A stretch of DNA of 32,000 bases from Halomicronema hongdechloris C2206 (GCF_002075285.3 NZ_CP021983.2:930001-962000); one strand, 5' to 3'; positions 1 through 28,489 are shown, counted from the first letter of the stretch. Numbers and translations are program-made. The notes: generated by a model from the sequence alone, not told the origin.

Positions 1-319
1 TCACGGCTAGGTCCTGGGGATTGGCGTCCCCATAGGCTCGATGGCCATAGCGCTGCAGCAGCGCGGGTACCTGATAGAGGGCCTCGGTGGTAACGCTGTG
101 TAGGGCCGAGGTCACTGGCAATTGGGCTGCCTCTGGCCCAGGCCCCCCTCCCCCAGCCAGGCTCAATAGGGCAATGACTGCCCTAGCAGCCCAGCCATTA
201 ATCGTAATGCTCGGCGCTTCAGACCACGAGACAAGGTCTGACCAAGGGCTATGAGGTAGGGGCGTAGTGAGGTCCAAGACGCCATGGGCTTCAAGGCTAG
301 GGAGAGTGCGATAAGTCAT
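1..319 (-). CDS. Hypothetical protein, 5' part only; the gene continues past the left edge of the window
   Basis: Hand translation of the minus strand gives an open frame from ATG at 319..317 to position 1: MTYRTLPSLEAHGVLDLTTPLPHSPWSDLVSW...ALYQVPALLQRYGHRAYGDANPQDLAV. Its ATG overlaps the TGA stop (318..316) of the upstream gene as ATGA. It is absent from the ORF track because it is truncated. I do not recognise a family. Confidence 0.45.
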   Translation of the reverse strand, partial: MTYRTLPSLEAHGVLDLTTPLPHSPWSDLVSWSEAPSITINGWAARAVIALLSLAGGGGPGPEAAQLPVTSALHSVTTEALYQVPALLQRYGHRAYGDANPQDLAV

Positions 320-2163
320 TGGCTAAGCCGCCCCAGAGGGGCTAGACCGGTCCTTGAGGGCCATCGCATCAGCAACGGACAAGGACCAGTGGCCTGATGG
401 GGGGGAATTAGCGCCACCACATGGGGGACAGGGCGAGGTTCATACCCCATCAACGAGTCGCCTTGGTAAGCCAAGGAGGTGCTGGCGCCCGAGTCCACCA
501 TGACGGCATCCCGTAAGCCCAACTGTTGGAGCAGCTGGCCTAGGGTGACCGAGTCGACCCGGTCCTGACTCACCCCCACCACCGGTTGACCAGCCTGGTT
601 AATGCCCCAAAAGGCGCGGTGACGTTGGGCCTCGAAATCAAACAGATTGCCAAAAGCACTAGCCGGCTGAGCCTCACCGTCCTTGACCAGCCAGGCAGCT
701 GCTACAAAGGCATCGGTTACCCGCGGTAGCTCTGCTCGCAAGCCCTGCAGCGTATTGTGCTGAGCTGGTTGAAAAGGAATATACTTGACCACCTCGGGAG
801 ACATTAAGACCAGAGGGCGGCCGGCTAGTTTGCGATTTTCACTGGCATTCCCCGGCACAAACGTGTGGCTATTCTGACTCAGCACTGGTCCAATCATGAC
901 ATTGGAGTCCAGATACTTGAGGGAAAAGAACCCACCATCTACCGCCGCGACGGCATTGGTGTGGGCGATGATCTCGGGAACCTGATAGCGGCTATCGGCA
1001 TGGATGGTCACAGGCCATCCCCCGGTGGCCAAGGCTAGGGGAATTCCTTCCAGGGTTAAGGTGTGCAGTTGCACAGGGGCACTGAACTGGAAAGTGTCAG
1101 GGCTAGGGGCAGGAGGGCCTGCCCAGGCCTGATCCAGTAGCTGGGACAGTGTCGATTGCCCAAAGCGAGCAATGGCCAGGAGATTGTCAGACTCACCTGC
1201 ATACGCTTCGTCAGTATTGCTCATGGTCAGGGCGGCCCGATACCCCGCCGCCTCTACTGCTGCCATCACTCGCTCATCATAGTGGCCAGCTGGGTAGGTA
1301 AAGTAGTGGATGGGCTTGTCAAGCTTGGCTTCTAGGCGAGCCTTAACCGCTGTCACCTCTCGACGCAGGTCGGCAGCGGGAAGCGATCGCAAATCGGGCG
1401 GATGCGTAACACTGTGGGCAGCAATGGTGACAAGAGGATCCTGGGCCATGTCCTGTAGCTGCGTCCAGGAGAGCCTCGAGCGGCCAGCGATAGTGCCATC
1501 TAACTTGCCGGTAAACACTGAGAAAACCGCTGGATAACCGTACTGCTGCAGCAAGGGGTACACATGGGTATAGTGGCCAGCGTAGCCATCGTCGAAGCTA
1601 AGCACGATGGATTTCTCTGGCAGAGGCCTGCCGGTATGTAAATGATTGACTAATTGCTCCAAACTAATTGGAGTCAGGCCCTGCCGACGAATCTGCTGAA
1701 ACTGCTCTGCCAACTGAGACGGCGTCACATCAAAGAATACCTGTGGCGTTGTTAAAACGTCGTGGTACATCAACACCGGTACCTTGGCCAGGCGAGCGTC
1801 TGCATGGATTGCTGGCCAAGCCCGAGTTGGCAGATAGGGGATAGGCAGGGATAGCCTGGACGCCAGCTCCTCAGTGAGGACACCGGAATCAGACGTAGCC
1901 TCAGCCCTATCTGTTGCTAACGGAGTGTGACAGACCCGTCGGGAGGATACTTCTGTGGGAAAAGCTGCCATACCAACAACCGCAGGGGCTGCGGGCAAGG
2001 TTACTGGGAATGACTGCCGCCGAGCAGGAGGCGATAATTCAGGCTGAATTACCAGGATAGCGGGTATAGCTGCTGCGACAGCCACTGCCGTTACCCCAAG
2101 CGTCCCCCAGTACCGAGGACGTAACCGCCAACGTTTGCCCAGCCCCAGTCCGTCCAACTGCAT
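316..2163 (-). CDS. Membrane-anchored fusion protein: polysaccharide deacetylase (NodB-type) domain plus C-terminal phosphodiester glycosidase (DUF2233/NAGPA-like) domain
   Basis: The N-terminal hydrophobic segment is TLGVTAVAVAAAIPAILVI. NodB-type motifs are VLMYHDV, VLSFDDGYAGHY and AAHSVTHP. The C-terminal half has AAVDGGFF, AFWGINQAGQPVVGV and MVDSGASTSLAY, which parallel the motifs in the ORF at 11738..13600. Confidence 0.75.
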   Translation of the reverse strand: MQLDGLGLGKRWRLRPRYWGTLGVTAVAVAAAIPAILVIQPELSPPARRQSFPVTLPAAPAVVGMAAFPTEVSSRRVCHTPLATDRAEATSDSGVLTEELASRLSLPIPYLPTRAWPAIHADARLAKVPVLMYHDVLTTPQVFFDVTPSQLAEQFQQIRRQGLTPISLEQLVNHLHTGRPLPEKSIVLSFDDGYAGHYTHVYPLLQQYGYPAVFSVFTGKLDGTIAGRSRLSWTQLQDMAQDPLVTIAAHSVTHPPDLRSLPAADLRREVTAVKARLEAKLDKPIHYFTYPAGHYDERVMAAVEAAGYRAALTMSNTDEAYAGESDNLLAIARFGQSTLSQLLDQAWAGPPAPSPDTFQFSAPVQLHTLTLEGIPLALATGGWPVTIHADSRYQVPEIIAHTNAVAAVDGGFFSLKYLDSNVMIGPVLSQNSHTFVPGNASENRKLAGRPLVLMSPEVVKYIPFQPAQHNTLQGLRAELPRVTDAFVAAAWLVKDGEAQPASAFGNLFDFEAQRHRAFWGINQAGQPVVGVSQDRVDSVTLGQLLQQLGLRDAVMVDSGASTSLAYQGDSLMGYEPRPVPHVVALIPPHQATGPCPLLMRWPSRTGLAPLGRLSQ

Positions 2164-7132: not shown

Positions 7133-9208
7133 CTATGCGTTCCCACTGTTTTTAGCGATGATGGTTTCAGCAACATTACGAGGAACCTCGTCATATTCAC
7201 TGAATTCCATCGAAAATATGCCTCGACCCTGCGTTTTGGAGCGGATATCGGTGGCATAACCAAACATCTCAGCCAGAGGAACCTTTGCAGTCACCTTGGC
7301 GAGGCTTTCCTCAGTGCCCATACCTTCAATATGACCGCGGCGAGAGTTGAGGTCGCCGATCACATCACCGAGGAAATCCTCGGGCACCTCAACTTCGACT
7401 TTCATCATGGGCTCTAGAAGGACAGGCGAAGCCTTCAACACAGCATCTTTCATAGCCATGGAGCCAGCAATCTTGAAAGCCATCTCGGAAGAGTCCACAT
7501 CATGATAAGACCCATCCACTAATGTAACTTTCAAATCGATCACGGGGTACCCAGCTAGGATACCAGATTCACAGGCTTCTTTCATGCCCTGCTCGGCAGA
7601 TGGAATGTATTCTTTAGGAATCGAGCCTCCAACAATTTTAGACGTGAACTCAAAGCCACTGCCAGGCTCGCTCGGCTCCACATCAATCACAACGTGGCCA
7701 TACTGTCCCTTGCCACCGCTTTGACGAACAAATTTACCTTCTACCTGAGTAGGCTTACGGATGGTTTCCCGGTAAGCCACTTGGGGGGCGCCAATATTGG
7801 CTTCAACCCTAAACTCCCGCAACATACGATCAACCAATATATCTAGGTGGAGTTCTCCCATCCCAGCAATCACCGTTTGGTTGGTTTCAGGGTCTGTACT
7901 GACGCGGAACGTTGGATCTTCTTCCGAGAGAGACTGTAAAGCCTTGGACAATTTGTCCATATCTTGCTTGGTTTTGGGTTCAACCGCCACCGAAATAACT
8001 GGCTCAGGAATATAAAGCGATTCCAGAATAATCACATTATCGGGGTCACAGATGGTGTCACCAGTGAACGTATTTTTCAGACCAATGACAGCCCCTAAAT
8101 CACCTGCCCGTAGTTCATCAACCTCGATACGCTCATCTGCTTTAAGCACAATCAAACGGGAGGCACGCTCCTTTTGATCCTTGGTGGCGTTATAGATGTA
8201 GCTACCCTTTTTCAAGATGCCGGAGTAAACCCGTAAAAACGTCAGTCGACCATAAGGATCAGACATGACTTTGAAGGCTAAAGCCGCCAAAGGCTCGTCA
8301 TCGTCTGCATGGCGCTCAGCTGTTTCACCACTCGGCAGTAGTCCTTGGATGGGAGGCACTTCAGTCGGAGCCGGCAGATAATCCACCACAGCATCCAGAA
8401 GTAGCTGGACTCCTTTATTCTTAAAAGCTGAGCCGCACAACATAGGAACAATAGTGCCAGCAATGGTTCCTTGACGCAGGGCAGTGGCGATATCCTCCTC
8501 GCCGAGTGATTCCCCCTCAAGATACTTTTCCATGAGGGCATCGTCGGCCTCAGCCACTGATTCAATTAGCTTAGTGCGATACTCATGGGCAAGATCGGCG
8601 ACATCGTCGGGGATATCTGTGTCGACCATATCCATGCCGAGATCGTCATTGTAGATGCGGGCTCGCATACCGACTAGATCGACGACTCCCCGGAAACCGT
8701 CCTCGGCACCAATAGGGATTTGAATCGGAACCGCATTCGCCTTCAGGCGTTCGACTATCTGGTTGTAGACCTTGAAGAAATTTGCCCCGGTGCGGTCCAT
8801 CTTGTTAACGAAGGCAATCCGCGGCACTCGATACCGCTCGGCTTGGCGCCAAACTGTCTCTGACTGAGGCTGAACTCCACCCACAGAACAAAAAACGGCG
8901 ATCACCCCATCGAGTACACGCATAGACCGTTCCACTTCAATCGTGAAATCCACGTGGCCAGGCGTATCAATGATGTTGATCTGGTGATCTCGCCAACGAG
9001 TGCTAATGGCTGCAGCTGTGATTGTAATTCCCCGCTCCCGTTCCTGTGCCATCCAGTCGGTAACGGCAGTTCCTTCATGCACTTCACCGAGTTTGTGCAC
9101 GATACCGGAATAGAACAAGATGCGTTCAGTTGTCGTTGTCTTGCCGGCATCAATGTGGGCAGCAATACCAATGTTTCTGACACGTTTCAGCGGGGTGCTC
9201 CGTTCCAC
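7133..9208 (-). CDS. fusA: Elongation factor G
   Basis: [29 protein letters not shown] and NKMDR motifs in a 691-aa protein. Its stop lies 21 bp upstream of the tuf start. Confidence 0.99.
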
Positions 9209-11737: not shown

Positions 11738-13600
11738 TCAAGGCCTGATAAATATGCCAATGCCATTGTGAACTCGAGCGGCGGTGCGGGGATTGCGGTT
11801 GAGTAAGGATCCCCCTAGGTAGAGGCTGGAGGAGCTGCCACCGTCTAGGTTAAGGGCCTGGACACACCCCAATTGCTGCATTAAGTGAGCAAGCTCGCTG
11901 AGGGTGAGGCCGCGACCGCCGGGGCTGTTGTGGGCGGCAACAAACACCCATTCGCCAGTGGCTCGTTGCCCTAGGGCGCTGCGGGGAGCTGCTTGGGTGG
12001 CAAAGGCTTGGCTAAAGCCTTCAGCGGTGGTATCTAAAACAATGCGGCCCCCTTTGAGTAAGAGGGGACCGCCCCCTATGGCATGGGGATAATCGCCAAA
12101 GGCAGCTGGTCGAGGCTGGGAGGTCAGTTGTACGGAGGTACCTGGGGAAAGTGCGATCGCAGCATCTCGATAGGCCCGTACAGCGAGTAAATAGCCTTGG
12201 GACGGAATCGCTACTGCCGTACTACCAGCGGTCCCGGCGGCAACCTGGTTTAAGACCCTACCATCGCTAACTGTCACCAGCACCTCATTATCGATAATGG
12301 GACTGTAGGTTGTCCCCCAAGCCGATGTATATAGGCCGATGCCAGCCTGGACATAGCCACTGTTGATCGCTTGGATGGGGAAGCGCTGTCCCCCGGCCAG
12401 GGTGATAGATTGCTGCAAAGCCAGGCGATCGAGGAGTAGGTTGCCCGTTTCATCCCAAGCGGCGACTCCCCGGTCAAGAATGGGACCAGAAATCCACTGT
12501 CCATCTCGACGGATAGCCCCTAGGGGCAGACGATTATTCCGATTGAAGTAACCGCCGTTAATGGCCGCAGCTGTTTGCCAGCGGCGAGCCGTGGTCACTA
12601 AGGGAGCAATGCCTGTAGCCGTGGTGGGATCTGTCCAGATCGGGCGCACGGCAATATTGGCCTGGCGGGGATCGACGATCAGGCTGTAAACCGGAAATGA
12701 GCGATCCCCCAGCGCCACATATCGCTGCTGCCATCGCAAGCCGGGGGCCCAGACAATATCTTTGGTGACTAAGGTATCTTGACGCACATCAATGATTAAG
12801 CGCGGCGGGTCAGGTAAGGTCCAGACTCGAGGACGGGCTGATTCATCCATGCGAACGTGCAGCTGAGTTTGTGATGGCCCCGGCCGTAGGGTTACTGATG
12901 AGATCAGGTTTCCCTCGATAGTCAAGGGCTGTTTCGAACGATCTTGGGGAGGGGCGGCAGCCTGCACAGTAACAGTGACAGCGCCTAGGTCTTCCGCCAC
13001 TTGCCAAGTAGTGGCACGGTCTAAATCGAGGACGATGCGATCGCCCCAGGATTGTCGGCCTCGACGTAGAGCCTGTATCGCAGCGGTGGGGGTATGGAGG
13101 GAGAGCACCCCTCCCCGAATATCCCAGGACCAGTCTGCCTGATTGGCCAGGGGCGACAGGTCCAAGTAACGGTCTCCAGCATCATGCCAGGCCGTCAGAG
13201 GTAAGGGCTGGACCTCAGGATTGGAAAACCACTGCACCGGTTGTCGATCGGCCCTAGTGGTGTTTAGGAATTCCACGCCGATGTCGATTAGAGCCGTGTC
13301 ACTCACCCCCAGATGCCCGGATCGTTGCTGCCAAGATCCCCTGATTGGAGTGCCATTGAGGATGATGCGGTTTCCTGCTGCGGCGTGATCCTCTGGCTTG
13401 ATTTGGGAGGGGACCTGGCCCACTAAGGCGGTAGCTCCTGCAGCGTTACCCCAAGCGGGAGGTTGATAGGCTGGGGCTGATATTGGCAGCCAGATAGACA
13501 GACCCAGGCCAACGGCGATCCACGTTATCCACCTATATCGCTGGTCATACCTCTGGCGGTGTTTGCGACCCTTAACCATAGTTTTCCTGGGCAATGTCAT
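11738..13600 (-). CDS. Phosphodiester glycosidase (DUF2233) family protein with an N-terminal membrane anchor and an AMIN-like domain
   Basis: The transmembrane segment is WITWIAVGLGLSIWLPI. The AMIN-like segment is RVWTLPDPPRLIIDV. C-terminal motifs AAINGGYF, GEWVFVAA and NLDGGSSSSLY match the C-terminus of the ORF at 316..2163. Confidence 0.7.
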   Translation of the reverse strand: MTLPRKTMVKGRKHRQRYDQRYRWITWIAVGLGLSIWLPISAPAYQPPAWGNAAGATALVGQVPSQIKPEDHAAAGNRIILNGTPIRGSWQQRSGHLGVSDTALIDIGVEFLNTTRADRQPVQWFSNPEVQPLPLTAWHDAGDRYLDLSPLANQADWSWDIRGGVLSLHTPTAAIQALRRGRQSWGDRIVLDLDRATTWQVAEDLGAVTVTVQAAAPPQDRSKQPLTIEGNLISSVTLRPGPSQTQLHVRMDESARPRVWTLPDPPRLIIDVRQDTLVTKDIVWAPGLRWQQRYVALGDRSFPVYSLIVDPRQANIAVRPIWTDPTTATGIAPLVTTARRWQTAAAINGGYFNRNNRLPLGAIRRDGQWISGPILDRGVAAWDETGNLLLDRLALQQSITLAGGQRFPIQAINSGYVQAGIGLYTSAWGTTYSPIIDNEVLVTVSDGRVLNQVAAGTAGSTAVAIPSQGYLLAVRAYRDAAIALSPGTSVQLTSQPRPAAFGDYPHAIGGGPLLLKGGRIVLDTTAEGFSQAFATQAAPRSALGQRATGEWVFVAAHNSPGGRGLTLSELAHLMQQLGCVQALNLDGGSSSSLYLGGSLLNRNPRTAARVHNGIGIFIRP

Positions 13601-22962: not shown

Positions 22963-23550
22963 CTATTTCCCCATTTGTCGTTTCAATTCGTCTAACTCTT
23001 CCTCCGTTTCCCAGCGGCGGAAGGTTTCTTCCAAGGGATCCATAGATGGGCTAGAGGGGTGACTGAAGGTTTTATAGGGAGACTGATTCCACCCTACATT
23101 CGCTGCTGTTTGAGCTTGTTGGCTGGCCCGTTGGGCTTCTGCTTGGGCAATCTTGGTTTTTAATTCAGCACGCTTATGATGGATACGCTGCTGCAATTGC
23201 CGGGTCTGGTCCAGCTGCTGTTTCACCCCTTTCATCTGACCCCAGAGATGATTGCCTTGCCGCAGTAGGGCGGCTTCCCGCTCTTGGGCTGGTTTCACTA
23301 GATCTTGCCGGTTAGCAGCCTTGGCTTTCTCAATACGCCCGTGCCACCGTTGTATCTCCTGGGCTGTTGCCAGAATGCCCTCTTCCAGCTGCTTTTCCCG
23401 TTGCTTTAAATCGCCCAACAGATGAATGGCATCTTCTTCTTGGCCCCGCAGCTGCTCCTCTAAAGCCATCAGCTCTAGGTGGGGATGAGCGCGTAGAAAT
23501 TCATCCAGTCGCATCTCGAGAAAGCGACTGAGATCATCAAACAGCCCCAT
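22963..23550 (-). CDS. Conserved coiled-coil protein; the N-terminus MGLFDD is reminiscent of PspA/IM30-like proteins
   Basis: The composition is a long heptad-like run rich in Q, E, R and K. It lies 20 bp downstream of the 23571..24608 gene on the same strand. Confidence 0.55.
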   Translation of the reverse strand: MGLFDDLSRFLEMRLDEFLRAHPHLELMALEEQLRGQEEDAIHLLGDLKQREKQLEEGILATAQEIQRWHGRIEKAKAANRQDLVKPAQEREAALLRQGNHLWGQMKGVKQQLDQTRQLQQRIHHKRAELKTKIAQAEAQRASQQAQTAANVGWNQSPYKTFSHPSSPSMDPLEETFRRWETEEELDELKRQMGK

Positions 23551-23570: not shown

Positions 23571-24608
23571 TTAGAACTGCTGTCCGATATAGATGGAGCG
23601 GACCTCACCGTTGCGACGAATGACGGCTTCCTGATTGGCGACCGATACCAGGGTCCAGCCGCTATTGCCGATTTGCTCGCCCAGGTAAACCCGTTGAGAC
23701 ACTCCGTTGATCTCAAACAGAGCGGCCGACCGTTGACCCAATTCTAAAACACCGACCAGCACGTGGGCCGGGGCAGCAGTGGCAACTCGCTGCTCAGAGG
23801 GAGAAGCACTAGCCTGGGGGCGGGGTGCCGGAGAGCCGGAACGGGTACCGGAATTGGTATTGGCGGTGGGGACTGGCTGATAGGGAACATAGACTCGCTC
23901 AATCACATTTACTGAGCCTGACGGTCCTAGGGGGCTGCTCCCCCCTGCTCCCCCAGGGGCATTTGCCATGGGTGGCAAGGAGCCAACTCCGTCGACGGAA
24001 ACATTGGGGATGCCTCCATCGGCGGAAGAGGCTACCTGAGAGCCTGCAGTGGCGGTCGGCTGCGATGACTGCTCGGTAATGACCTCTAGAGACCGCCGCA
24101 GGTATTCGAGAAATTGAGTGTCGCTCTGGGCAACTGCTTGCTCTGGGCTTCCGGTGGCCGTGACAACAGGGGATGTTTGTTGGCGATTGACTAGCCACAG
24201 CAGTAAGGTAGCCCCTAGGGAAATCCCGGCGGCGGCTAACAGTAAGTGATCGAGGTGACGGGTCCACCAGGACTGGGGGGGCTCTGCGGTGGATTCGGAC
24301 TCGGCGACGGCCGCTGCCGCTTCCCGGGCCCGGTCCAGGGGCCCTACCACCGGCATCGCTAAGGCCGTGGTCAAGGGGCTATCATGGTTGCTCGGCGCTG
24401 GGGCCGGCGCCTGAAGCGAGGATGCCAATGCGGTTGAATCTCCCTCCAAGGCTTGATCGATAGGCTCGAAAAGCTCGTCCATCAGGCGCTCGGCATAGGA
24501 GTCGACCAACGTCGCCGAATCCATGTCTGGAGTTTCTAGATCGATTGCCGTGGTAGGGGTTGCCTCTGGCAATGACTGGGCCGCCACACTGTCAGACTGC
24601 TGGGTCAT
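23571..24608 (-). CDS. Hypothetical single-pass membrane protein with a P/A/S-rich linker and a C-terminal PilP/GspC-like beta domain
   Basis: The transmembrane segment is LLLAAAGISLGATLLLWLV. A low-complexity linker follows. The C-terminus LVGVLELGQRSAALFEINGVSQRVYLGEQIGNSGWTLVSVANQEAVIRRNGEVRSIYI resembles the PilP/GspC HR-domain pattern, judged by eye only. Confidence 0.5.
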   Translation of the reverse strand: MTQQSDSVAAQSLPEATPTTAIDLETPDMDSATLVDSYAERLMDELFEPIDQALEGDSTALASSLQAPAPAPSNHDSPLTTALAMPVVGPLDRAREAAAAVAESESTAEPPQSWWTRHLDHLLLAAAGISLGATLLLWLVNRQQTSPVVTATGSPEQAVAQSDTQFLEYLRRSLEVITEQSSQPTATAGSQVASSADGGIPNVSVDGVGSLPPMANAPGGAGGSSPLGPSGSVNVIERVYVPYQPVPTANTNSGTRSGSPAPRPQASASPSEQRVATAAPAHVLVGVLELGQRSAALFEINGVSQRVYLGEQIGNSGWTLVSVANQEAVIRRNGEVRSIYIGQQF

Positions 24609-24772: not shown

Positions 24773-25417
24773 CTAAAACAGCTTGGCCTCTTGGCGCTGG
24801 GGATCAAACTGGTAACGTTGGCTGCGGTCGGTGACGCCATAGAGGTTGAAGGATACGGTGGGGGTATCGCCTAGGGGTTCGACGCTGTGAATGGCGTCTG
24901 GGGTGAAGGTGATGATGTCACCTGGATTGAGCGTCAGCTCCGTGACGGGTTCGATGCGGTGGGGATGCTCTGGCTCTGGGCAACGACGCCACAGCCGATT
25001 CTTCTCCTGGCCTCCAATCAGAGCCACCAGTCCCCAGGTGGCGTGGTTATGGATGGTGGACTGACTGCCGGGGCGCCAGGTGACCATCTGAACGGTTAGG
25101 GGATATTGGTGTTCCCGGTAGAGGAAGTTCACGGCCCAACCCGTCTCTGGAGAGGGCTCTTTATACTCTAGCTGTAGCCAATAGGAGCTAATCAGCAGGC
25201 GCCGCACCAGGGGAGTGATGGCCTTGAGGCGACTAATGTCATCTGGGTAGGTCTCTAGAATGTCTTCGAGATCCGTCAGAAACCGATAGAGTCGATAGAT
25301 GCGATGGTCAAAGACCGGCCCTCCAGGGCCATCGCATGCTGGAGTCTCGGTGGTGCCAAAGGCAGAGTAGTCAGCCTCGCCGGTCACTAGCCAGTTGTGG
25401 TTTTCCATGGTGTTCAC
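24773..25417 (-). CDS. Cupin-fold metalloprotein, cysteine-dioxygenase-like (COG5553-type)
   Basis: STIHNHATWGLVALIGGQEKNRLW and FTPDAIHSV fit the His-rich cupin motifs of this family. It is divergent from the FGE-like gene with a 54-bp spacer. Confidence 0.6.
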   Translation of the reverse strand: MNTMENHNWLVTGEADYSAFGTTETPACDGPGGPVFDHRIYRLYRFLTDLEDILETYPDDISRLKAITPLVRRLLISSYWLQLEYKEPSPETGWAVNFLYREHQYPLTVQMVTWRPGSQSTIHNHATWGLVALIGGQEKNRLWRRCPEPEHPHRIEPVTELTLNPGDIITFTPDAIHSVEPLGDTPTVSFNLYGVTDRSQRYQFDPQRQEAKLF

Positions 25418-25471
25418 GACGGCGTTAAACTCGCCATTCTTAAGGTAGCAACCATCGCATCGAGATGACAG

Positions 25472-26416
25472 ATGAGCGGGAAGGCTGTGAATAGGCTCAG
25501 CATGATCAGACAGTCAATAGGGCAGTCAATAGGGGTAGGAGGAATGGCGACGGTATTGGCCTTAGTCGCCTGTGGTGATAGCCCAACTACCATATCTCGA
25601 TCTCGCTGTGAGGCGCAGCCTGGATTTGTGTTTATTGCGTCAGGCGACTTTGTCGCCGGTAGCGATGAGGCTGAGCGGGCTATGGCTTATCGCCTGTCAG
25701 CTCAGGCGCTGGGCGATGACCCCAAGGCGGTTGCAGCTGCAGAAGTCTCTTTGCGGCAGCAGGGGTGGTTCGACAGAGAGCCACAACGCCGCTCTCAGTT
25801 TCTGGCTGGATTCTGCATGCAGCGGCACCTGGTGACCCAAGCTGACTATGCTGCTTTCGTGGCAGATACCGGCCATCGGGCCCCAGATATCTCAGAGGCT
25901 GATTACGAAGCGCAGGGATTTTTGGTGCATCCCTATGAGACAGTACGGGACTACCGTTGGCAGGATCGCAGTCCCCCCGCTGACTTGACCAACCATCCAG
26001 TGGTGCTGGTGTCCTATGATGATGCCCTGGCCTACGCCCGTTGGCAGGGGCAACAGGATGGGGTCAGTTATCGCCTGCCGACGGCGCTGGAGTGGGAGAA
26101 GGCGGCCCGTGGCACCGATGGCCGCTACTTTCCCTGGGGGAATACGTGGCAGGCTGAGGCTACCAACTGGGCTGGGGTGCCGCCCCAAGGTACCAGTGCG
26201 GTAGGCAGTTTTTCGGATACGAGTCCCTATGGCGTCACTGACATGGCTGGCAATGTATTTGAATTTACCTCAACCCTGCGGCAGGGAGGCCAGGAAAGCG
26301 TGATGAAGGGCTGTTCTTGGGACGATTTACCGGGGTTTTGCCGGGCTGCCTATCGCCATGACCGACCGGTATCCTCCCGTCATATCCTATTCGGATTTCG
26401 CTTAGTTTTAGAGTGA
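25472..26416 (+). CDS. Formylglycine-generating-enzyme (SUMF1/EgtB/PvdO, DUF323) family protein, predicted lipoprotein
   Basis: The lipobox is LALVAC. FGE-fold motifs are HPVVLVSYDDALAYARW, YRLPTALEWEKAARG, FPWGN, VTDMAGNVFEFT, KGCSW and FGFRLV. Confidence 0.8.
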   Translation: MSGKAVNRLSMIRQSIGQSIGVGGMATVLALVACGDSPTTISRSRCEAQPGFVFIASGDFVAGSDEAERAMAYRLSAQALGDDPKAVAAAEVSLRQQGWFDREPQRRSQFLAGFCMQRHLVTQADYAAFVADTGHRAPDISEADYEAQGFLVHPYETVRDYRWQDRSPPADLTNHPVVLVSYDDALAYARWQGQQDGVSYRLPTALEWEKAARGTDGRYFPWGNTWQAEATNWAGVPPQGTSAVGSFSDTSPYGVTDMAGNVFEFTSTLRQGGQESVMKGCSWDDLPGFCRAAYRHDRPVSSRHILFGFRLVLE

Positions 26417-26529
26417 GGTTAATGGGGAATCCAGGATTTTCTCAGCAAATTCTCAGGAAAGTCCGGCTTAATAGCATGAGGTGATTCTGTGTAGTTGCCG
26501 AGACGTACTTTAGGCGAGAGGATTTTTCA

Positions 26530-26766
26530 ATGAAGGTACAGTATCTAGGTGCGATCGCAGTAGCTTCTGCGCTTAGCTTTGGCATGGTAGCCTGTGGTCC
26601 CAACTCGACGGCCGATCCCTGTGCGGGCGGTGATGCTACCACAGAAGAGCAGGCTGACCCCTGTGCCGCCGACCCTTGCGCTGGCGACCCCTGTGCCGCC
26701 GATCCCTGCGCTGGCGACCCCTGTGCCGCCGATCCCTGCGCTGGCGATCCTTGCGCTGGTTCTTAG
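26530..26766 (+). CDS. Small lipoprotein composed of D-P-C-A-[A/G] pentapeptide repeats (8 DPCA motifs)
   Basis: GAGAGGA lies 8-14 nt upstream of the ATG. The signal peptide has lipobox FGMVAC. The mature part is ...ADPCAGG...EEQADPCAADPCAGDPCAADPCAGDPCAADPCAGDPCAGS. Confidence 0.6.
   Translation: MKVQYLGAIAVASALSFGMVACGPNSTADPCAGGDATTEEQADPCAADPCAGDPCAADPCAGDPCAADPCAGDPCAGS
26656..26760 (+). repeat. 30-bp tandem repeat, 3.5 copies, coding for (DPCAADPCAG)n
   Basis: The units are 26656-26685, 26686-26715 and 26716-26745, plus a half unit at 26746-26760. Units 2 and 3 are identical and unit 1 differs at 2 positions. Confidence 0.95.
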
Positions 26767-27016
26767 GGCTGATCACCTGCATCGAGGAGCAGCCTCATCA
26801 ATAGCCTGCAGTTCATCTAGCCTTCAGGCAGAGGTAAGGATAGAAAAAGAGGGCTGGATTGGCTAGTGGGCTTTATTTACTAATTGCTCTGCCGACTAGG
26901 CAGTCCTGGGTGGCCCGGAGGGTACTGAAAACCACGATCGCCCCCTGCGACTATCCGCAAATCAATGTAGATCTAGCTTTAGATCCCGTTTGGATCACGC
27001 TTACTGACACACCTCC

Positions 27017-27047
27017 AGCCCTTGGCCCCCCGAGGGCTTTTCTATTG
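27017..27047 (+). terminator. Weak stem-loop plus T-tract, possibly an orphan terminator
   Basis: AGCCCT (27017-27022) pairs with AGGGCT (27033-27038) around a 10-nt loop and is followed by TTTTCTATT. No convincing plus-strand ORF ends just upstream. Confidence 0.25.
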
Positions 27048-27124: not shown

Positions 27125-28489
27125 CTAGGAGCGCGATTTGTGACAAAATCGGTGATCTAATCGGGCATTCTCTGGCAGATAGTCTTGCTGGCGCCAATAG
27201 TTGGGAATATGGGCGATGACAGCATCATCAACTTGCTCAATAGGTTTCCAGCAGATATGGCAGGTGGGATGACGCTCCAGCAGGGTCTCCTTTAGCGCTA
27301 TGGAGAACTGACCGGATTCCTGACCACTGGGGAGCCCGATGAGGGAATCGAGGCGTTGCCGCCAGGTCTCAGCCCGATACTGGAGCCGCTCTGGTTTGTC
27401 AGTGCTGCTACTGATGTATTCGACAAAGGTCTTGTCGTAGGTCATCAAGTCTAGGAACTCTTCCCGCACCCGATCGGCAATGGGCAGCATCTGCTCCCGC
27501 GTGTAATAGCTGAAGGTATACAGCAGCGTATCCCATAGGGCAACATTGAGGCGTTTACTTTCCCAGTCGCCATTGGGATTGTAGGCATTACCCACATTGA
27601 AGCGACGACAGGCATGCTCCCCAAATACGGCATCCGCCATGGCAATGGAGCTCTCGAAGACGGCTCGCATTTTCTCAAGCTCTGGGTCTTTTAGCTGGCG
27701 ATGGCACTCCATTTCGGTATTGAGAAACCGTTTGAAGGGGCTCTTGTAGTTATGGTGAGTGTTACGCCACATGGCGAAAAAGCGCAGAATCAGCTGCCGA
27801 TCAGCCATGCGAGGATGGGGGTGTTCAGAGCGCATGATCTTGAGCATGTGGGGATTCTGGGCGAGTTCCTGCAATAACTCGTTATAGTTCCCCCGATAAA
27901 CACAGTTGCGCACCTCTTGATCATTCAGCTTTTCGGCGCCTAAGTTGAGTCGCTCAAAGACTTCGAACTTGACATCCGGATCGGACTCTTGCTCGATGAT
28001 GATCAACCGCAGGGTGAAGTTGAGAATTTCCTCCTGCAGCTCTAGGGACAGGTTACTGAAAGATTTTCGGTTCAGTTCTGTCAACACCTTCAAGCCCGAT
28101 AGCCGGAAGTCCTGACCACTGGGAAAGGTGCCGTTGACGAAGGAGCAGATGCTGGTCAGCCGCTGTTGACCATCAACGACGGAATAGGTACGATTCGTTT
28201 CCTCAGAAAGATAAATGACGGGAATCGGAATTTCCAGCAGCAGGGATTCAATCAGCCGGCTGGCTTTACCGCTGTCCCAAACAAAATTTCGTTGGAAATC
28301 GGGCTGCAGGTTGAGCTTACCCCGGTTGACCCAACTCACCAGCGTTTCGACTGGTAAATCCTGTTTTTCGGTCTTGACTCGCCGTTTGTCGGGGGCAACG
28401 TCTAGGGGACTGTCATCGTCAGTGTGGTCGATGATCAACTCGGACTCGATCGGGCTCTGCTCAGGCATAACAATGGGGACAACGGTCAT
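27125..28489 (-). CDS. DUF262 (ParB-like/GmrSD N-terminal) domain protein with a C-terminal HNH-like zinc-finger tail; candidate type IV restriction-like defence nuclease
   Basis: LQPDFQRNFVW and SVVDGQQRLTSI are the DUF262 hallmarks. The C-terminal 45 aa, CHICWKPIEQVDDAVIAHIPNYW...ENARLDHRFCHKS, have CxxC...H...N...H..C spacing like an HNH/His-Me finger. Confidence 0.75.
   Translation of the reverse strand: MTVVPIVMPEQSPIESELIIDHTDDDSPLDVAPDKRRVKTEKQDLPVETLVSWVNRGKLNLQPDFQRNFVWDSGKASRLIESLLLEIPIPVIYLSEETNRTYSVVDGQQRLTSICSFVNGTFPSGQDFRLSGLKVLTELNRKSFSNLSLELQEEILNFTLRLIIIEQESDPDVKFEVFERLNLGAEKLNDQEVRNCVYRGNYNELLQELAQNPHMLKIMRSEHPHPRMADRQLILRFFAMWRNTHHNYKSPFKRFLNTEMECHRQLKDPELEKMRAVFESSIAMADAVFGEHACRRFNVGNAYNPNGDWESKRLNVALWDTLLYTFSYYTREQMLPIADRVREEFLDLMTYDKTFVEYISSSTDKPERLQYRAETWRQRLDSLIGLPSGQESGQFSIALKETLLERHPTCHICWKPIEQVDDAVIAHIPNYWRQQDYLPENARLDHRFCHKSRS

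Follow-up and report, generated by a model that had tools for sequence, protein, structure and literature searches.

What would a lipoprotein with the fold of the formylglycine-generating enzyme (FGE) do beside a small lipoprotein with a cysteine at every fifth residue? This question is raised by three neighboring genes in a 32,000-nt stretch of DNA from Halomicronema hongdechloris C2206 (NZ_CP021983.2:930001-962000, hereafter the window; positions are counted from its first letter): a cupin of the cysteine dioxygenase (CDO) family, an FGE-fold (FGE-like) lipoprotein and a 78-aa lipoprotein built on D-P-C-A-[A/G] units (the PCA repeat). Two kinds of chemistry are established for the FGE fold: a single protein modification, the conversion of a sulfatase Cys to formylglycine, and C-S bond chemistry on small molecules. 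The initial annotation of this DNA regarded the cluster as a candidate enzyme and substrate pair or a metal-handling module, an interpretation that is partly supported by the analysis presented here. The three genes probably form one conserved cysteine-centered module of the cell envelope, and the linkage of the PCA repeat and the FGE-like gene, as judged from gene neighborhoods, is real, strong and not obligatory.

Gene Organization of the Locus

All three open reading frames (ORFs) of the initial annotation, the 113-bp gap from the FGE-like stop codon to the ATG of the peptide, and the eight D-P-C-A-[A/G] units were confirmed. The cupin gene (24773-25417, minus strand) encodes 214 aa, cytoplasmic and without a signal peptide, and was assigned from its ORF, from phmmer matches to the PDB and from conserved His residues. 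It is transcribed divergently from the FGE-like ORF (25472-26416, plus strand), a member of the SUMF1/EgtB/PvdO superfamily that matches PF03781 (FGE-sulfatase, E 1.2e-39). The FGE-like protein is 100% identical to ASC69993.1, for which GenBank gives a start at 25544 and a length of 290 aa; alignment of orthologues favors the ATG at 25502 (MIRQSIG...). Because this start is ambiguous, the spacer to the cupin is not necessarily the 54 bp originally proposed, a value that holds for a start at 25472 and is replaced by 84 or 126 bp for the probable starts at 25502 and 25544. The peptide gene (26530-26766, plus strand; ASC69994.1) is annotated as hypothetical protein XM38_009240. Lipoboxes read from the sequence bear out the predicted lipoprotein signals of both proteins: LALVAC/G in the FGE-like protein, with the lipobox Cys codon at 25571-25573, and FGMVAC/G after the hydrophobic N-terminus of the peptide.

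The divergent intergenic region (25418-25501), as read from the sequence, presumably holds the promoters of the cupin gene and of the FGE-like and peptide genes. One weak sigma-70-like match (minus strand, 25529-25502) is no better than those in shuffled sequences, and a search for a shared operator or k-mer motif in 27 orthologous cupin/FGE spacers gave nothing above shuffles. Downstream of the peptide gene, a consensus scan marked a terminator-like hairpin (27017-27038, plus strand) with a 9-bp stem, six G-C pairs and a T-rich tail; the same scan found no comparable hairpin in the gap that separates the FGE-like and peptide genes. The hairpin at this position is compatible with a two-gene transcript of the FGE-like protein and the peptide.

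Linkage Among Cyanobacteria

To follow the cluster from the enzyme side, we collected 80 cyanobacterial loci with FGE-like orthologues (52-66% identity, one per species, 870 kb in total). When all ORFs of these loci were clustered, only the cupin and the PCA-repeat ORF recurred beyond local synteny, and no sulfatase emerged as a conserved neighbor. The cupin adjoins the FGE-like gene in 35-36 of the 80 loci, nearly always divergent and upstream. A six-frame regular-expression scan gave 19 PCA ORFs and tblastn added a 20th (L018, with three PCA units); all 20 found in the 870 kb lie within 470 bp of the FGE-like gene, and they are distributed over 18 of the 80 loci. The PCA ORF is on the same strand in each case, downstream of the FGE-like gene in 14 loci and upstream in four; L003 and L008 each have a further copy on the other strand.

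The loci with a PCA ORF are spread over at least seven clades of a neighbor-joining tree of the FGE-like proteins, and the trio is retained although the window and its relatives have different genes around it. Three genomes carry two FGE-like paralogues, namely Leptolyngbya sp. Heron Island J, Leptothoe sp. PORK10 BA2 and one metagenome-assembled genome (MAG) (L007/L080, L014/L073 and L019/L079). In all three, the cupin and the PCA peptide accompany the deep-branching paralogue and not the other. The adjacency noticed in the window is thus conserved in many cyanobacterial clades and in both gene orders, and, as described below, it extends to proteobacteria.

Linkage Seen From the Repeat Side

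The reciprocal search used a degenerate DNA pattern for three consecutive P-C-A-[AG]-[DN] units and did not use the enzyme as a seed. It recovered at least 120 metagenome loci. An FGE-like gene lies within 1 kb of the repeat ORF in 19 of the 120 listed loci (16%), where chance adjacency at this distance would be far below 1% on our assumption of one such gene per few thousand genes. About 10 of these 19 FGE-like neighbors are only 40-49% identical to the window protein and stand on contigs that do not look cyanobacterial, with a GC content of up to 0.72; one such group is identical to a protein of an alphaproteobacterial MAG. By the evidence of these neighborhoods, the linkage extends to two phyla, Cyanobacteria and Proteobacteria.

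A second gene appears in the same searches. DUF6969 (PF22308, E 1e-87) is encoded within 1 kb of the repeat in 17 of the 120 listed loci, often immediately downstream and with operon-like spacing (examples are L085:1492-2268, L104:4714-5415, L122:436-1203, L132:10215-10955 and L203:5944-6681). Taken together, an FGE-like or DUF6969 neighbor is present in 36 of the 120 listed loci, and in 10 of the 25 that have at least 1.5 kb on both sides. In proteobacteria the FGE-like and DUF6969 genes form a conserved pair that also occurs without a PCA gene. The DUF6969 protein is cytoplasmic and has invariant His clusters (H64, H82, H84, H97, H99, H131) that would be typical of a metal site. By gene position, DUF6969 appears to take the place of the cupin in proteobacteria. 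As a distant cupin it was rejected, since hhalign gave a probability of 0.2%, BLASTP gave no match and no PDB relative was found.

The proteobacterial pair sometimes stands beside rhodanese and DUF2336 genes (L203:6699-7175 and 7353-8516; L132:8127-9263), and one DUF2336 protein (P0299) has a Cys/Pro-rich low-complexity region at its N-terminus. YeeE-like transporter genes, recognized by sequence motif rather than by a hidden Markov model, occur in seven of the listed PCA loci. The rhodanese, DUF2336 and YeeE-like neighbors are a hint of possible sulfur handling.

The PCA Repeat and Its Distribution

After its lipobox Cys, the window peptide contains eight Cys in eight D-P-C-A-[A/G] units, laid out as one isolated ADPCAGG unit, a 12-residue spacer and seven contiguous DPCA[A/G] units in which every fifth residue is a Cys. 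The DNA coding the DPCAA/DPCAG units is a tandem repeat with a 15-bp period (26656-26759, plus strand; Tandem Repeats Finder and pattern search), reported by Tandem Repeats Finder as a 30-bp unit present 3.1 times with 96% identity; the repeat pattern has six matches in the window and none in 100 shuffles. Signal peptide, lipobox and repeats are kept in more than 30 taxa, and between close relatives the substitutions outside the repeat are mostly synonymous or at third codon positions (9 vs. 2, 6 vs. 0 and 8 vs. 4). This pattern indicates that the PCA frame is under purifying selection and, with the conservation, that the small ORF is a real gene. Overlapping ORFs with Pro/Arg-rich translations at 26594-26866 (plus strand), 26636-26782 (minus strand) and 26676-26804 (plus strand) are not considered genes, since the PCA frame alone is conserved; they are by-products of the GC-rich tandem repeat.

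The number of repeat Cys ranges from 3 to 15 among relatives. Across phyla P-C-A is invariant and the flanking residues vary, a pattern more suggestive of motif recognition than of a simple requirement for thiols. An AlphaFold2 model of the peptide, built on a shallow alignment, has a pLDDT of 46 and no secondary structure, a prediction of disorder that would suit a substrate or a tether. Together with the lack of a Pfam Pentapeptide match, this structureless model led us to reject a pentapeptide-repeat protein (A[DN]LXX, beta-helix).

A word-indexed homologue search with the peptide returned only three matches because low-complexity words are not indexed, and it was replaced by the degenerate DNA pattern scan described above and by a profile search. 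A repeat profile built from four peptides was run with full HMMER against 1.84 billion proteins and gave 150 clusters (50% identity level) at E≤1e-3, in which some of the longer matches are spurious low-complexity proteins, mostly eukaryotic. The motif [DN]-P-C-A-A, often with an added Lys in proteobacteria, is a widespread module of proteins with signal peptides. It occurs in stand-alone proteins of 55-150 aa or as an N-terminal tail, a C-terminal tail or both. The tails are fused to YHS (seleno)protein domains (NF041384, 158-170 bits) and also to cytochrome P460, SoxA/TsdA-type cytochrome c, sulfocyanin-like cupredoxin and DM13 domains; examples among metagenome loci L081-L200 are L085:620-1450, L104:2063-3229, L115:119-745, L086:225-869 and L082:8341-9162. 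In the cyanobacterial loci L003 and L008, the FGE-like gene lies between a PCA-YHS fusion and a stand-alone PCA peptide.

The repeat is covered by no Pfam or NCBIfam model, with sub-threshold touches only from CefA and BufA2, and repeat-only proteins have no Pfam match at E≤0.1, the Pentapeptide models included. The CefA model (NF038108), a Cys-every-fifth ribosomally synthesized and post-translationally modified peptide (RiPP), is the sole curated model that touches the window peptide. It shares the Cys at every fifth residue. However, the window peptide scores 18.0 bits and a relative 14.1 bits against a cut-off of 30, PCA peptides have Sec/lipoprotein signals instead of a RiPP leader, and no dedicated CefA maturase is adjacent. 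In the full-text literature searched, no description was found under the repeat strings, "Cys-every-fifth," DUF6969, the locus tags, or an FGE-like protein with a precursor peptide. The PCA repeat and its pairing with an FGE-like gene appear undescribed, in keeping with the initial annotation, which did not recognize the pairing as a known system.

The FGE-Fold Lipoprotein

The AlphaFold2 model of the FGE-like protein (pLDDT 90.2, pTM 0.88) was compared with known structures by Foldseek. It matches ToxD, CalU17, pFGE, FGE and PvdO with TM-scores of 0.6-0.67 and 23-29% identity, FGE structures at E ~1e-15. Because the similarity to these five proteins is nearly equal, the FGE-like protein belongs to no characterized clade, and it does not cluster with an enzyme of known substrate. 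Its scores are far below the equivalog cut-offs for EgtB (70.5 against 360), SenA (65.7 against 420), OvoA (41.8 against 400), PvdO (56.5 against 500; NF051459) and GldK (46 against 350). After the lipobox, the only Cys are C22, C91, C257 and C266. All four, and W259-D260-D261, are invariant in 91 cyanobacterial orthologues, where the invariant motif reads K-G-C-S-W-D-D-x-P-G-F-C-R-A-A-Y. The pair C257/C266 is C-x8-C in cyanobacteria and C-x-x-C in the proteobacterial relatives, whose motif is G-G-S-W-D-D-K-G-C-G-V-C-R-P-A-A, the WDD being kept in those aligned.

The canonical Cu-binding Cys pair, the C-x4-C of FGE (human C336/C341), is absent, and a variant pair is kept. By MAFFT, C266 is aligned with human C341 and an Asp stands at the position of C336, an alignment that is tentative in this loop, as HMMER failed to align the C-terminal active-site region; the human sequence used with MAFFT agrees in its central and C-terminal segments with the FGE sequence in the HMMER comparison. 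The Cys pair, conserved and repositioned, would fit either a structural disulfide or a variant site for metal binding or redox chemistry. The FGE-like protein also has an extra helical insertion near its N-terminus that is absent from human FGE, and the Ser of the GGS motif is kept.

Canonical FGE (SUMF1) and the FGE-like protein share the fold (TM ~0.6, 25% identity), family PF03781 and the Cys aligned with C341, and in the proposal discussed below both would act on a Cys in an extended peptide. The two differ in the displaced second Cys, in the lipoprotein signal of the FGE-like protein, and in a partner that contains C-A-A-D-P and not CxPxR. The absence of CxPxR and of a nearby sulfatase, pointed out in the initial annotation, was upheld: Pfam profile scans found no sulfatase gene in the window, and across the 80 related loci none is conserved as a neighbor. 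Of four tested features that define a canonical FGE, the PF03781 fold was found and the C-x4-C pair, a CxPxR substrate and a sulfatase gene were not, and this assignment was rejected.

A synthase of the EgtB/OvoA/SenA type was likewise rejected, given scores far below the cut-offs and a protein that consists of the FGE-like domain alone, without the N-terminal DinB-like iron-binding domain. A lipoprotein export signal is also not expected on a cytoplasmic biosynthetic enzyme such as EgtB, OvoA or SenA. PvdO and PorK/GldK resemble it in being exported FGE-fold proteins without a canonical FGE site (TM 0.54-0.65 to the FGE-like model); PorK is also a lipoprotein, and the action of PvdO is oxidative and periplasmic. 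The Cys pair and the WDD motif are, by contrast, specific to the FGE-like subfamily, and no pyoverdine or type IX secretion system (T9SS) genes accompany it. PvdO itself was rejected on its score and on the lack of pyoverdine genes in the window.

The Cupin

The cupin has no Pfam family above threshold and no match to a CDO model at E≤0.01. Against the PDB, phmmer aligned about 160 residues with CDO type I, 3-mercaptopropionate dioxygenase (MDO) and mercaptosuccinate dioxygenase (E 2e-14 to 2e-10), among them 6xb9 (CDO type I, 2.3e-14) and 3uss/4tlf (MDO, 5e-13). Like these bacterial thiol dioxygenases, it has the three-His iron site and the Ser/Tyr motif: its H-x-H, third His and S..Y motif align with the PDB enzymes, the His with the metal ligands of 6xb9 and 3uss, and H123, H125 and H177 are invariant in 22-35 orthologues. 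It differs from them in the triad, which reads Ser-Asn-Tyr and not Ser-His-Tyr in a pairwise alignment, and in the substrate-selecting Arg (CDO) or Gln (MDO) position, which is apparently Ala/Val in one pairwise alignment read by eye.

ORFs judged by eye to resemble sensor histidine kinases adjoin the cupin/FGE/PCA cluster in L003 (1899-3278), L008 (2758-4140), L018 (5045-7180) and L027 (8153-10983), some of them with a response regulator, also recognized by eye. The kinase-like gene and the cupin stop codon overlap in L003 and L008, an arrangement suggestive of a single transcript.

Other Genes of the Window

Apart from the cluster, the window contains housekeeping genes (EF-G, EF-Tu, glutamate synthase and a betaine ABC transporter) and a GmrSD-like gene. 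The latter (27125-28489, minus strand; E 1e-29 for DUF262, the domain at the N-terminus of the GmrSD restriction endonuclease) is transcribed toward the peptide gene and is probably an unrelated defense gene. On the same strand as the cupin and downstream of it, at 22963-23550 and 23571-24608 (minus strand), a TIGR04376-family protein (254 bits) is accompanied by a 345-aa Pro/Ser-rich protein with a weak T2SS-C-like C-terminus; TIGR04376 is a paralogue of a cyanobacterial "hercynine metabolism protein" found with EgtB/EgtD. Both were rejected as parts of the module, as they are not conserved neighbors in the 80 related loci. Two large secreted-looking proteins with NAGPA (phosphodiester glycosidase) domains (11738-13600 and 316-2163, minus strand), one of which also has a polysaccharide deacetylase domain, flank the str operon (EF-G, EF-Tu).

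Discussion

The reading we favor is that the repeat is a client of the FGE-fold protein, which would act oxidatively on the repeat Cys in the periplasm. We hold it tentatively, as plausible and still short of probable, the chemistry being our own proposal. In this mechanism the small gene would supply a lipid-anchored disordered tail of D-P-C-A-[A/G] units with one thiol per five residues, and the FGE-fold protein, lipid-anchored in the same extracytoplasmic compartment, would recognize the P-C-A units and oxidize their Cys. The active site would be non-canonical, formed by the invariant Cys aligned with human C341 and a displaced second Cys. Candidate products are formylglycine, a disulfide, a persulfide and other oxidized Cys derivatives, and the modified tail may become an appendage that binds metal or sulfur or is redox-active. 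On the cytoplasmic side, the thiol-dioxygenase-like cupin would be a partner under common regulation that handles a related thiol.

This reading is based on the reciprocal linkage in two phyla, the paralogue-specific association, the invariance of Pro and Ala around the Cys and the disordered peptide, and also on the known capacity of the fold for binding an extended Cys peptide where thiols form a copper site. Canonical FGE binds an extended peptide and oxidizes its Cys with Cu(I) and O2. Fusions of the type Buf1-Cytochrom_C-FGE-sulfatase have been published, so FGE-sulfatase domains do partner exported Cys-based copper peptides (PMC12452194).

Several observations weigh against a dedicated enzyme and client pair. 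No PCA gene accompanies the FGE-like gene in 62 of the 80 cyanobacterial loci, or within 5 kb in two of three proteobacterial contexts (L203 and L204; L205 mirrors L203), and in Synechococcus PCC 7335 no FGE-like gene lies within 6 kb of the PCA peptide gene. In proteobacteria, PCA genes have DUF6969 as a neighbor about as often as the FGE-like gene (17 vs. 19 of the 120 listed loci). None of the long homologues joined PCA repeats to an FGE domain, and the FGE-like subfamily is large, with more than 2,800 proteobacterial matches. The protein lacks the canonical copper site, and HMMER, with a single sequence as with a profile, does not align its C-terminal active-site region with FGE structures. 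Non-catalytic periplasmic FGE folds are also known, such as PorK, the outer-membrane-anchored ring lipoprotein of the T9SS.

The main rival, possible although we consider it doubtful, is that the PCA tails stay unmodified and carry soft metals (Cu(I), Zn, Cd, Hg) or sulfane sulfur/polysulfide, as a periplasmic buffer or delivery arm in the manner of the Met/His-rich tails found on copper proteins or of SoxY with its GGCGG arm. In that case the FGE-like protein would be a copper-dependent or thiol-oxidizing accessory that receives metal or electrons or shares a stress response, with no covalent change to the repeat. Such a carrier would agree with the analogous bufferins and oxazolins, which bind Cu(I) (PMC12452194). 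It would also agree with the fusions to metal, redox and sulfur domains (YHS, Cytochrome_P460, SoxA/TsdA, sulfocyanin-like, DM13), with the rhodanese, YeeE-like (by motif) and extracytoplasmic function (ECF) sigma factor neighbors of some loci, with a copy number that varies as rapidly as in buffers, and with the many PCA genes that have no FGE-like neighbor. However, the strict Pro before and Ala after each Cys is unnecessary for metal binding, free thiols are normally oxidized in an aerobic periplasm, and neighbor clustering in the 80 loci and the 120 listed loci revealed no conserved metal transporter or sensor. Nor does a carrier account for why an FGE-fold protein and a cytoplasmic metalloprotein recur as neighbors.

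A broader form of the client reading is an envelope modification system that spans Cyanobacteria and Proteobacteria, in which the FGE-fold oxidase would convert many [DN]-P-C-A-A Cys to formylglycine or another oxidized residue and the cupin and DUF6969 would complete the pathway. Its targets would be the stand-alone lipoproteins and the tails of periplasmic cytochromes, cupredoxins and YHS proteins, and its outcome a new metal-binding, cross-linking or redox-active appendage. We regard a system of this extent as unlikely.

It is more improbable, in our judgment, that the Cys are modified before export by the cytoplasmic metalloprotein (the cupin in cyanobacteria, DUF6969 in proteobacteria), as bufferins are by their multinuclear non-heme iron-dependent oxidase (MNIO), with a later or separate role for the FGE-like protein. 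The cupin is the commonest FGE-like neighbor (36 of 80), and DUF6969, with its invariant His clusters, is encoded directly 3' of PCA-cytochrome genes in an operon-like arrangement in many loci. Thiol dioxygenases that act on protein Cys are known, namely the plant cysteine oxidases and 2-aminoethanethiol dioxygenase (ADO). The bufferins themselves are a precedent, as their MNIO modification comes ahead of Sec export (PMC12452194). However, the cupin and DUF6969 are not homologous by hhalign, so the parallel between them is positional only. The cupin is also present in many loci that lack a PCA gene, and several PCA loci (L001, L005 and L010) lack the cupin. To our knowledge, the bacterial CDO-family enzymes characterized so far all act on small thiols.

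Coincidental or inherited synteny of functionally unrelated genes, or a fast-evolving repeat gene in a permissive spot, is very improbable: the peptide is missing from most of the 80 orthologous loci and the cupin from 44, the 27 spacers share no regulatory motif, and low-complexity repeat genes arise and expand easily, but the adjacency is found in both orders, in at least seven clades, in rearranged neighborhoods and in a second phylum at 40-49% identity, and its 16% share of the 120 listed loci far exceeds our estimate of chance.

Among known systems, the closest analogue of the FGE-like/PCA module would be the bufferin/oxazolin system. Bufferins and oxazolins (Buf1/DUF2282, Buf2, Buf_EGKCG) are MNIO-modified, Sec-exported, Cys-rich, copper-binding RiPPs (PMC12452194). 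Oxazolins have repeated E-G-K-C-G motifs of variable length, with up to 58 Cys that the MNIO turns into Cu(I)-binding groups, and the precursors are sometimes fused to other domains and often encoded away from the enzyme, with ECF sigma factors nearby (PMC12452194). PCA proteins are similar in being small, with conserved Cys and a Sec/lipoprotein signal (predicted for the PCA proteins), and in their five-residue repeats, domain fusions, ECF sigma factor neighbors and frequent unlinking from the enzyme. They differ in the repeat, [DN]-P-C-A-A in place of E-G-K-C-G, and in their partners, an exported FGE-fold protein and the cupin or DUF6969. No MNIO (DUF692), DUF2063 or DoxX is a conserved neighbor in the neighborhoods of the 80 and the 120 listed loci, and one PCA relative scores 18 bits with the BufA2 model against a cut-off of 60.

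Since the pairing is undescribed and recurs in many cyanobacteria and proteobacteria, it probably represents a new envelope system based on cysteine. The [DN]PCAA repeat, found on periplasmic cytochromes c, P460, cupredoxins, DM13 and YHS proteins, is abundant and has nonetheless stayed uncatalogued. If the link proves functional, the role of the repeat would annotate hundreds of hypothetical proteins, and DUF6969 and the large orphan FGE-like subfamily would gain a testable role. The FGE fold would acquire a second class of protein clients, extracytoplasmic and with many target sites each. Among exported Cys-based peptide metallophores such as the bufferins, the module would be an independent, non-MNIO route, and it would be relevant to how marine and mat bacteria manage copper, sulfur or electrons in their envelope.

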